Source of the DNA: a virus
DNA: 64,000 nucleotides
Virus record (IMG/VR): IMGVR_UViG_3300033153_010326
Location: 40,369 to 104,368 of that record
Strand: one strand, 5' to 3'
Below, one piece after another: positions 5,827 to 12,131 of this stretch. How positions within the stretch are numbered: position 1 is the stretch's first letter; each line of letters starts with the position of its first letter. Both the position numbers and the translations under genes were made by a program. The notes beneath the pieces are model-generated. The model had not been told where the DNA came from, did no database searches, and was given only the letters and a program-made list of their open reading frames with translations.

Positions 5827-5834
5827 GAGATAAT

Positions 5835-6098
5835 ATGAAACTATTAGCTACTAAAAAAATGAAACAATTATTAAGAAAAGGAAAATATTTAGCAAAAAAA
5901 GATAAACTTAAAGTAACTAGTCCAGATTATATGTATATGCTTATAAATGATACTCTTAAAAACGGATGGCATTATAATGTGGATTTATCTTATTCTGGAA
6001 TACATGTATATGCTTTTAAACCTCCTTTGGATTTTAGGGCTAGACCAGCAGATTATTATTTAGCAAGTAAATTTAAAAAACGAAAAGGAGGTGGTTAA
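5835..6098 (+). CDS. Hypothetical protein
   Basis: 87-aa ORF, AGGAG RBS. Confidence 0.6.
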   Translation: MKLLATKKMKQLLRKGKYLAKKDKLKVTSPDYMYMLINDTLKNGWHYNVDLSYSGIHVYAFKPPLDFRARPADYYLASKFKKRKGGG

Positions 6099-6099
6099 T

Positions 6100-6776
6100 A
6101 TGATAGGTAAGATAATTAGAATCTTAAAATTCAAATTATTCTATACCTATCTTTGAAGCTAGCAGGAGCGATTGAGTTTGATACCAAAGATGGTGGTCAA
6201 ACTTGGAGGAATAGTATAACTATTCCTTTAGATGAAATGGGAATTTATGTTGGAGACCCTGTAAAGACTGAACCTGTTGCTACTGGTATGGATGTTATGG
6301 AAGCTCAAAATAAATTTAATGGGTGGATTCAATCAGGTAATTATGATATATTTGAAAAGATGTTTACAAGAATTGTTCAAAAAGATATTAGATTAGTTAA
6401 TAGAGCAGATTTTTTGATTGTTCATTTATTTCCTGATATACCTACTACTGGAACTATTCACGAAATGGCTTTAGCGTGGATGCAAAAGAAACCTATATAT
6501 TTAATATGGAAAGATGCTAAGAGCAAATTATCAAAGTGGGCATTATATTTAGTTATTTCTTCAGGAGGGCGATTATTTGATAGTGAAAATAAACTTACAG
6601 AGTTTATAAGGGTAAAATATAATCTTAAAAATCAAAGTTTTAGAGTTCAATTTATTCAAATTATAAAAGCCATAAGTAGACTTATAGAGGAAAATTTATA
6701 TAATTTAAAAACGAATAGTAATGGTAATCAAGAAAAAATTAAACAGGACTTAGAAAAGAAAGAGGAGAAGAAATAA
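6100..6776 (+). CDS. Nucleoside 2-deoxyribosyltransferase-like protein, interrupted by an 8-nt stop-containing gap (recoding or pseudogene)
   Basis: AGGAGGT RBS and ATG 6100 give ...YTYL-stop (6154); another frame continues AGAIE...DIRLVNRADFL...GTIHEMALA..KKPI. Confidence 0.75.
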
Positions 6777-7492
6777 TGAGGCGATTTAAAGGAGGAGCTA
6801 CCAGAAATAATGATGAAAATAAAAATGATTATGATGGTTTTTTATCTTCCATGGTATTAAACAAATATGACCAATTTTTAGAAAGAGAAAATCAAATTGC
6901 ATGGGCTTCTGGTTTGTTTGAAGGAGAGGGTTGTGTTTTTAAAGCTACTACAAAAAACAAACATGCTCGTTTAGAAATTAAATTAACAGATGAAGATGTA
7001 TTACAAAGATTTTTAAAAATTGTTGGATATGGAAAAATATATGGGTCTTATTGGGCTAAAAAAAGTACAAAACCTTATTGGTCATGGCAATGCAACAAAG
7101 ACCAAGAAACTATAGAAGTATTAAAATTACTTTATCCTTATTTAGGAACAAGAAGAAAAAATAGAGTAAAAGAAATTTGTTCTATAGAAAGACTTGCTGA
7201 AATAAATGCAATGCCTCCTTTAGTTATAAAAGCTTTTGGTGATTATATGACTAAACATAGAAAACAAGCAGATGGAAAGTTAAGACCAAGTGATAATTGG
7301 AAAAAAGGCATACCTCAAGAAGCTTATTTCCAATCAGCATGGAGACATTTTTTAGATGTATATTTGCATCATAAAGGATATAATGATAAAACTACAGAAA
7401 ATCTAGAAGATTCTCTTTGTGCATTGATTTTTAATATAATGGGATATTTGCATGAATTATTGAAAAATAAATTATTGAAGGATAAAAAATAA
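6776..7492 (+). CDS. dATP/dGTP diphosphohydrolase-like (DUF5664) protein with in-frame LAGLIDADG insertion
   Basis: F.GGATR..D..K.DYDGFLS / PLVIKAFGDYM..H...DNWKKGIP...SAWRH...LCALIFN flanking WASGLFEGEG. Confidence 0.8.
   Translation: MRRFKGGATRNNDENKNDYDGFLSSMVLNKYDQFLERENQIAWASGLFEGEGCVFKATTKNKHARLEIKLTDEDVLQRFLKIVGYGKIYGSYWAKKSTKPYWSWQCNKDQETIEVLKLLYPYLGTRRKNRVKEICSIERLAEINAMPPLVIKAFGDYMTKHRKQADGKLRPSDNWKKGIPQEAYFQSAWRHFLDVYLHHKGYNDKTTENLEDSLCALIFNIMGYLHELLKNKLLKDKK
6848..7216 (+). mobile_element. In-frame LAGLIDADG endonuclease domain insertion (123 codons)
   Basis: IAWASGLFEGEGC motif; no intein block A or C-terminal HN. Confidence 0.75.
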
Positions 7493-11288: not shown

Positions 11289-11705
11289 GAGAAATTATGT
11301 ATTATTTTTTATATAGTTTAATGTTAATAGGTTTTATAGGGGTATCAGTACAAGCTCCTGATTTAAGGTCGAAAGTTATTGGGATTTTGTTGGTTGTGGT
11401 GAATGGGTTAATTTTTTGGAGATAATAATATGAAATATAAATTTTATGTATATAAAGTAATAGGAGAAGCGGAAATATTTACTGAAAATCAACCTAATAA
11501 AGAAGAAGCTAGAGAATTTGTAATGAAAAATGCTAAACATCTTAATTATAAAAGACCTGGTTATTTTTATATGTTATTAAATAAAAGACCAAAGGTGGTG
11601 AAATGATTATTTGTAAATATTGTAAAAGAGAAATACCTAATAAAAATCTTATAACTAAAAATGGATGCCGATGGTGTTCGGCAGAATACCATCAAAATAA
11701 AAATA

Positions 11706-12131
11706 ATGAAAAAATTAAAGATAAGTAAAAAAGATTTAATAAAAGCTTATAATATTGATAGATTAAAACTTCAAGAAATTTGTATTAGATTTGCTTGTGG
11801 AGAAACTACTGTAGTTAGATTATTAAAAAGATATAAGATTTTTAAAAGAGGAATGGTATCATCTATAGGAAATAAAAAGTATACTTCTAAAGGATATATT
11901 TTAATTTTATTACCATTTCATCCTTTTAGTTCAAAACGAGGATATGTTAGAGAACATAGATTAATGATGGAAAAGTATCTTGGTAGGTATTTAAAAAGAG
12001 AAGAAGTAGTTCATCATGAAAATGATATTAGAGATGATAATAGGATTGAGAATTTAAGATTATTTTCTAATCAAGGTAAGCATAACAAGTTTCATAGGAA
12101 TCGTGTTAATAAAGAAAAAGGCAGTTTCTAA
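11706..12131 (+). CDS. HNH homing endonuclease
   Basis: REHRLMMEKYLGR.L...EVVHHENDIRDDNRIENL; N-terminal HTH. Confidence 0.9.
   Translation: MKKLKISKKDLIKAYNIDRLKLQEICIRFACGETTVVRLLKRYKIFKRGMVSSIGNKKYTSKGYILILLPFHPFSSKRGYVREHRLMMEKYLGRYLKREEVVHHENDIRDDNRIENLRLFSNQGKHNKFHRNRVNKEKGSF

Follow-up and report, generated by a model that had tools for sequence, protein, structure and literature searches.

The locus described here raises the question of whether a gene whose reading frame is broken by 8 surplus nucleotides that include a stop codon, 18 codons after its start, still gives a complete protein, and if so, how the ribosome crosses the break. The window (the whole stretch of 64,000 nt that was analysed) is part of a virus record that is complete, with 104,368 bp, terminal repeats and a G+C content of 26.8%. 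Our comparison of this locus with its relatives suggests that the gap is decoded by a short Leu-to-Leu stop-hop that would restore an invariant YLAG motif, a reading to which we give a probability of roughly 0.6. We hold with considerably more confidence that the gap itself is real, mobile and linked to an HNH endonuclease gene.

A gap at the end of the first strand of a deoxyribosyltransferase-like protein

The features on which the argument turns are the following.

5835 to 6098, plus strand: 87-aa ORF in the slot that the HNH gene occupies in relatives; its last codons (K-G-G-G) stem from the 3' end of a lost HNH gene
6084 to 6099, plus strand: remnant of the HNH 3' end, doubling as the ribosome-binding site of the leader (AAAGGAGGTGGT), nearly identical to L010
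6100 to 6153, plus strand: 18-codon leader (MIGKIIRILKFKLFYTYL), a cassette-borne copy of the N-terminus of the gene, ending in the proposed take-off codon CTT at 6151-6153
6154 to 6161, plus strand: coding gap of 8 nt, consisting of TGA (6154-6156), AG and the proposed landing triplet CTA (6159-6161), assigned by reading the sequence and by homologous gaps
6162 to 6776, plus strand: continuation of the nucleoside 2-deoxyribosyltransferase-like gene after the gap, with 204 codons and a stop, starting AGAIEFD

The ribosome-binding site AGGAGGT (6086-6092) lies inside AAAGGAGGTGGT at 6084-6095, as read from the letters of the window, and the ATG at 6100 opens an 18-codon mini-ORF that ends with CTT at 6151-6153. 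This codon is followed by TGA (6154-6156), AG (6157-6158), CTA (6159-6161) and GCA GGA GCG from 6162, after which 204 codons remain open up to a stop at 6774-6776. The preliminary description had reported the strong ribosome-binding site before ATG 6100, the reading up to CTT-TGA and a skip of 8 nt from CTT 6151 to CTA 6159 that gives YLAG, all of which agree with our reading to the nucleotide, and YLAG is also the consensus of the family; the remainder of the gene, given there as about 205 codons, is indeed intact. ORF callers set the start of the gene at TTG 6153, which overlaps the stop codon TGA.

A search of the collection returned 63 homologues besides the window protein, 34 of which were aligned. 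Most of the aligned proteins begin with M..KLFYTY-LAGAIEFD (family form M-FAKIIQFFKIKLFYTY-LAGAIEFD), and intact homologues read without a break through ...KLFYTYLAGAIEFD. The alignment thus identifies the mini-ORF as the true N-terminus of the family, and it follows that the window has exactly 8 surplus nt between Leu and Ala. The gap splits the catalytic Tyr-Leu-Ala-Gly motif between L18 and A19, and both Tyr17 and Gly20 are invariant in 51 homologues.

The window ORF scores below the cut-offs of PF05014/PF15891 (27.5 versus 28.8 bits and 23.6 versus 30), and many of its homologues carry precomputed matches to these families. The AlphaFold (AF2) model of the intact homologue P0005 has a pLDDT of 89.9, and its residues 14-19 (FYTYLA) form a strand; according to this model, the leader covers a short helix and strand beta-1, and the gap falls at the end of this first strand. 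Foldseek searches with the P0005 model gave NDT, DNPH1 and MilB structures as top matches (E values of 3e-5 and below), and the YxAG and GTxxE motifs, the latter with the nucleophile Glu, align with those of Trypanosoma NDT (T. brucei, 2a0k). Judged by its modelled fold, the gapped gene is a member of the nucleoside 2-deoxyribosyltransferase superfamily.

Recurrence and mobility of the gap with an upstream HNH gene

Protein-guided scans of viral and metagenome contigs yielded 40 loci, whose junctions were read individually. Eleven contigs, including the window, have an interrupted junction, and these fall into six sequence types that share one codon boundary before GCN GGN.

Window: CTT TGA AG CTA, gap of 8 nt
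L010: CTT TGA AG CTC, gap of 8 nt
L009: CTT TGA CG CTA, gap of 8 nt
L004, L007, L018 and L026 (type B): CTT TGA CG GTA, gap of 8 nt
L035, L038 and L039: CTT TGA CTT, gap of 6 nt, in frame
L032: CTG TAA CTG, gap of 6 nt, in frame

An assembly or sequencing error, which the preliminary description had allowed for as the source of the 8 nt, has nothing in its favour beyond the frame break itself, and it can be set aside for all practical purposes since homologous gaps occur at the same site in 10 other, independent contigs from different samples and projects. The second caveat raised there, a recent inactivating insertion, is not supported either. In five of the six types, one Leu codon CTN precedes the stop and another directly precedes the codon at which the frame resumes; the four type B contigs would land on GTA, so matched codons are not universal. 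The protein P0007 (MKVAG...) probably lands on GTA as well, its gap being deduced from the protein. Among 17 distinct intact sequences, TAY is followed by TTA (7), TTG (6), CTT (2), CTG (1) or ATG (1), and then by GCN or ATT. The codon at the take-off position is therefore CTN in 6/6 interrupted types versus 3/17 distinct intact sequences. All interrupted forms retain an open leader and a strong ribosome-binding site, the last seven leader codons (K-L-F-Y-T-Y-L) differ across types by five synonymous variations and two conservative replacements, and none of the 11 interrupted genes has a second lesion.

Relatives were sought by other routes as well. A scan of viral contigs with the pattern TAYCTTTGANGNTAGCNGG gave 62 matches, two of them real (L004 and L007), the others being chance matches or conserved sequence from unrelated phage groups. 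A search of GenBank phages gave no match at the DNA level and one distant match at the protein level, and no relative was found in the prokaryote genome contigs scanned, which hence provide no clue to the host.

The gap is closely associated with a nuclease gene. In each of the 10 other interrupted contigs, an HNH ORF lies directly upstream of the leader and overlaps its start, and an HNH gene is present upstream in 0/25 intact loci (the tally covers the 25 in which 560 nt or more are available upstream). The HNH ORFs of the cassette are about 170-190 aa long (138 aa in L018) and match PHROG HNH endonuclease families with E values of 1e-12 to 1e-16; NUMOD3 is also matched, and Pfam HNH_3 falls just under its cut-off. 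Their positions upstream of the leader were confirmed by tblastn. In the intact loci L001, L008, L012, L019 and L020, whose upstream genes were read, a DUF6899 gene abuts the deoxyribosyltransferase-like gene, and it is between these two genes that the cassette HNH sits.

It had been proposed in the preliminary description that the gap and a LAGLIDADG nuclease encoded downstream form an endonuclease-plus-bypass cassette. The concept has held up, with a Leu-flanked stop and linkage to a nuclease; the choice of partner has not, the real partner being the upstream HNH. The LAGLIDADG domain is present as described, about 750 nt downstream (ORF 6776-7492, Pfam LAGLIDADG_1, aa 45-131). However, tblastn searches for this domain in 40 related loci, interrupted or intact, found it in none of them, and five other interrupted loci (L004, L007, L009, L018 and L026) carry an uninterrupted dGTP_diPhyd_N-like gene at the position of the LAGLIDADG ORF. 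Instead of co-occurring with a LAGLIDADG insertion, which is unique to the window genome, the gap covaries with the upstream HNH gene, and we consider a protective role against the LAGLIDADG nuclease very improbable.

The LAGLIDADG domain of the window (aa ~36-140 of the ORF at 6776-7492) forms an in-frame insert in a dATP/dGTP-diphosphohydrolase-like gene (C-terminal part of PF18909). The insert is preceded by SMVLNKYDQFLERENQ, a diverged duplicate of the post-insert residues PPLVIKAFGDYMTKHRKQ. Among the ~20 loci with the neighbour gene, the window genome alone has the insert, and Pfam gave no Hint/intein domain for this ORF. Other endonucleases were seen around the deoxyribosyltransferase-like gene. 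At L005:2454-2924 (and likewise in L006 and L024), the gene is intact and a free-standing LAGLIDADG ORF of 156 aa occupies the intergenic slot of the HNH, apparently a hot spot for homing endonucleases of different kinds. At L035:755-1900, and in the same region of L038 and L039, the upstream HNH and the 6-nt CTT TGA CTT gap are found together with a LAGLIDADG intein in the same gene; this intein is inserted between QDP and CKTEP (Cys1 ... His-Asn/Cys+1). L031 and the protein P0045 were noted together with these relatives.

Several comparisons indicate that the HNH gene and the gap move as one element. Interrupted genes are dispersed over the maximum-likelihood tree built from the gene body, with at least 4 changes of state forced by starred branches and 7 given by parsimony. 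A sliding identity profile of L018 against the intact L019 shows 90-100% identity from +16 nt past the junction and 27-62% upstream of it, and L018 is 85-97% identical to the other type B cassettes from -70 to +10. The same breakpoint pattern is seen between L010 and the intact L011. The window and L010 are 95-100% identical across the leader and 62-85% identical right after the landing triplet, and the 3' crossover lies at the landing triplet or no more than ~20 nt from it. These sharp breakpoints imply that the HNH gene, the leader and the gap travel together between gene backgrounds. In relatives, the cassette is thus made up of the HNH gene, a copy of the first 14-18 codons of the target gene that overlaps the HNH stop, and a stop-containing gap of 6 or 8 nt. 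The HNH has diverged down to ~41-57% identity, while the leader and the Leu-stop-...-Leu layout have been kept.

The window departs from its relatives in that the HNH gene adjoining the gapped gene is not there. In its place, the ORF at 5835-6098 has no Pfam or PHROG match. Positions 5829-6060 align to positions 1748-1976 of L009 (an 83-aa ORF), which lie ~1 kb further upstream in that contig, and positions 6084-6165 align to 2932-3013 of L009/L010, a stretch that takes in the final ~26 nt of the HNH gene together with the leader and the gap. The L010 counterpart of the sequence from 6084 onward encodes the C-terminal residues KGGG of the HNH, whose gene spans L010:2452-2955, and the window is nearly identical to it there, with 95-100% identity to L010 from -64 to -24. 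The joint of the deletion falls at ~6061-6083, and ~955 nt, including the HNH gene, are missing. The best reading of the window is thus an orphaned HNH-plus-bypass cassette, in which the leader and gap were kept and the nuclease gene was deleted. The leader differs from that of L010 at ~1 of 59 bases, and with so small a difference the invasion of the window genome may be recent. The sole other HNH gene of the genome is a free-standing one at 11661-12131, encoding 156 aa and distantly related to the cassette HNH (E = 3.9e-8).

Proposed decoding of the gap

The recurrence of the gap at one site, always behind an HNH gene in relatives, suggests that ribosomes most likely hop over it. Peptidyl-tRNA-Leu would detach from CUU 6151 while UGA occupies the A site and, after a slide of the mRNA by 8 nt, pair again with CUA 6159. 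Translation would then continue from GCA 6162 to give ...FYTYLAGAIEF..., with LFYTYLAGAIEFDTK as the junction peptide. By analogy with T4 MobA, the gap would break the target of the HNH in a highly conserved stretch, so that its carriers would be immune. The protein is most likely still made in the window genome.

The hop is favoured firstly because it alone restores Y-L-A-G, the alternatives placing K, T or W at the invariant Tyr or deleting beta-1. A second argument comes from the landing triplet, which is the first CUN 3' of the take-off codon in 5/6 types, with all four wobble bases represented and CU conserved. A third is the take-off codon, which is CUN in all six types and mostly UUR in intact genes; UUR Leu codons are read by other tRNAs than CUN. 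The take-off codon and landing triplet can be read by the same tRNA in the pairs CTT/CTA (window), CTT/CTC, CTT/CTT and CTG/CTG, the exception being the CTT/GTA of type B. The stop is followed by C in 4/6 types, which is a weak termination context. Two observations speak against the hop: the GUA of type B pairs at two of three positions, with a first-position mismatch for tRNA-Leu, and translation of the CTN and GTA landing triplets would likewise give a conservative pattern (Leu/Val). Some latitude for mismatches in landing is known from gene 60 variants and from yeast mitochondria (PMC5009743; 10.1101/2022.08.31.505936).

No conserved RNA structure or internal Shine-Dalgarno common to all types was found, and shuffled sequences fold at least as well as the window and L010 (z +1.5). 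Type B has GTA in place of CTA at the landing triplet and, along with it, TAC in place of TAT two codons upstream (e.g. L004:2995-3010). Together the two changes produce a perfect 5-bp hairpin enclosing the stop (CUACC-UUUGAC-GGUAG), present in this type alone, which might be a compensatory take-off structure. A take-off hairpin as a general feature was rejected, as it was seen in type B only.

Two unconventional decodings were discarded outright. A code in which TGA specifies Trp would leave the gap out of frame and would lead to a TAG, and TGA is an ordinary stop in this genome, where 18 of 60 long ORFs close with it. Neither the window nor the 104-kb genome as a whole was found to contain tRNA genes. 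A +1 frameshift of the prfB type would run into a stop after 7 codons, and the upstream sequence TTCTATACCTAT is without a Shine-Dalgarno.

A slip of tRNA-Leu by +2 from CUU to UUG in the 8-nt types, combined with stop codon readthrough in the 6-nt types, would yield a product with YL-x-(L/V)-AG (peptide LFYTYLKLAGAIEFDTK). The +2 frame does read UUG AAG CUA, the triplets CTA, CTC, CTT, CTG and GTA would all be translated as the conservative residues Leu or Val, type B included, and the protein P0008 is recorded with YLWLAG. This reading nevertheless requires two unrelated mechanisms for homologous cassettes that are a 2-nt indel apart, and the in-frame 6-nt types rule out both a +2/-1 shift and re-initiation at UUG as a mechanism common to all types. 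Moreover, the UAA of L032 is a tight stop, a competing +1 slip onto UUU would enter a frame that closes after 7 codons, and K, T or W would replace the invariant Tyr of YxAG, two residues before Ala-Gly. We consider slippage with readthrough unlikely.

Termination at the UGA could also be followed by re-initiation at the overlapping UUG 6153, which would give an 18-residue peptide and a protein starting MKLAGAIEF, i.e. a split or truncated enzyme. The TTGA stop/start overlap is present in all 8-nt types, ORF callers start P0002, P0007 and P0035 at this codon, and T4 MobA and MobE do make functional split proteins (10.1101/2022.08.31.505936). In the 6-nt types, however, the UUG is out of frame and the ORF is preceded by CUU or CUG alone; in the window, there is no ribosome-binding site before 6153, and the truncated protein would be without strand beta-1 and the invariant Tyr. 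Re-initiation thus appears distinctly improbable.

The remaining alternative to a stop-hop is that no recoding takes place at all, and that a selfish cassette inactivates a dispensable gene and persists by homing, the copy in the window being a young pseudogene. The dN/dS of the downstream frame is 0.06-0.28; these low values need not reflect selection after the interruption, since the cassette keeps invading fresh genes, and both they and the intact frames could predate the invasion. The small distance between the leaders of the window and L010 would also fit this scenario. It accords poorly, however, with the lack of any second lesion in the 11 interrupted genes, with the conservation of a strong ribosome-binding site, an open KLFYTYL leader (with mostly synonymous changes) and the Leu-stop-...-Leu layout through the divergence of the HNH, and with the fact that the window gene stayed intact after the loss of the nuclease. 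A gene simply inactivated by the cassette is for these reasons a rather doubtful explanation.

Relation to known bypassing systems

To our knowledge, translational bypassing in phages has been published for one element only, T4 gene 60/MobA together with the topoisomerase-gene homologues. We lean, if not strongly, towards the view that the interrupted genes represent programmed hops of peptidyl-tRNA-Leu from CUU or CUG over 6 or 8 nt, forming a natural stop-hop family within a homing-endonuclease cassette independent of gene 60, with the orphan gap of the window as an immunity allele.

The likeness to T4 rests on architecture. In the relatives' cassettes, as with MobA and gene 60, the element brings along its own copy of target-gene sequence, whose start is overlapped by the HNH immediately upstream; the gap opens with a stop right after the take-off codon and falls in a motif of high conservation; the landing triplet, or a point just past it, marks the end of the element, which has inserted repeatedly into close gap-less genes; and, in the window, the nuclease has been lost and the gap kept. 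MobA elements likewise carry a homologous N-terminal copy and a gap, and some lineages have lost the nuclease (10.1101/2022.08.31.505936). In contrast to gene 60, with its 50-nt gap, the gap here is of 6-8 nt, neither a take-off stem-loop nor an internal Shine-Dalgarno is conserved, and the tRNA would be Leu (CUN) rather than Gly (GGA). The target also differs, being a deoxyribosyltransferase-like gene instead of a topoisomerase gene; the HNH occupies an intergenic slot and does not split a gene; and the virus belongs to a different phage group (27% G+C, ~104 kb).

The 6-nt types CTT TGA CTT (L035, L038 and L039) and CTG TAA CTG (L032) have the exact layout of the synthetic stop-hops of E. coli, in which a stop is enclosed by matched codons and 9 nt give one amino acid (Weiss et al. 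1987; PMC5009743). Those constructs were engineered and inefficient, and the window differs from them by two further bases, which make the hop an out-of-frame one of +8. According to a 2016 review of recoding, natural in-frame stop-hops were not known (PMC5009743). Like the byps of Magnusiomyces capitatus mitochondria, the gaps would be short mobile inserts corrected in translation, with an imperfect codon match that recalls type B; the byps are mitochondrial, 27-55 nt long, have an unused codon, not a stop, in the A site, and lack a nuclease partner (PMC5009743).

There is also a resemblance to prfB (RF2), in that types A3, B and D share the core UAY CUU UGA C, where a tRNA-Leu on CUU faces a weak UGA. 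The programmed +1 frameshift site of prfB is UAU CUU UGA C. Unlike prfB, the gapped genes have no Shine-Dalgarno 3 nt upstream, and the shift required is +8 or +6.

If ribosomes do hop the gap, homing-endonuclease cassettes would have in bypassing a general means of breaking up their own DNA target within a protein motif that is invariant while leaving the protein unchanged, and the orphan gap would be the immunity allele that remains after nuclease loss. The elaborate signals of gene 60 would then not be needed, and a Leu codon and a weak stop with a Leu triplet close by may suffice. The interrupted loci would provide a natural allelic series (6 or 8 nt; CUA, CUC, CUU, CUG and GUA; with or without a hairpin) in which the rules of P-site re-pairing could be mapped. 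Annotation pipelines would also be expected to miscall such genes systematically as truncated, as would then have happened to P0002, P0007, P0009 and P0035. In a further record, P0008 (an ENA contig of 1018 nt), the protein is given as ...FYTYLWLAGAIE..., with an N-terminus otherwise identical to that of L035; its Trp probably arose when the gene caller translated the TGA of a CTT TGA CTT gap as Trp, unless a variant with TGG has turned the gap into two sense codons.
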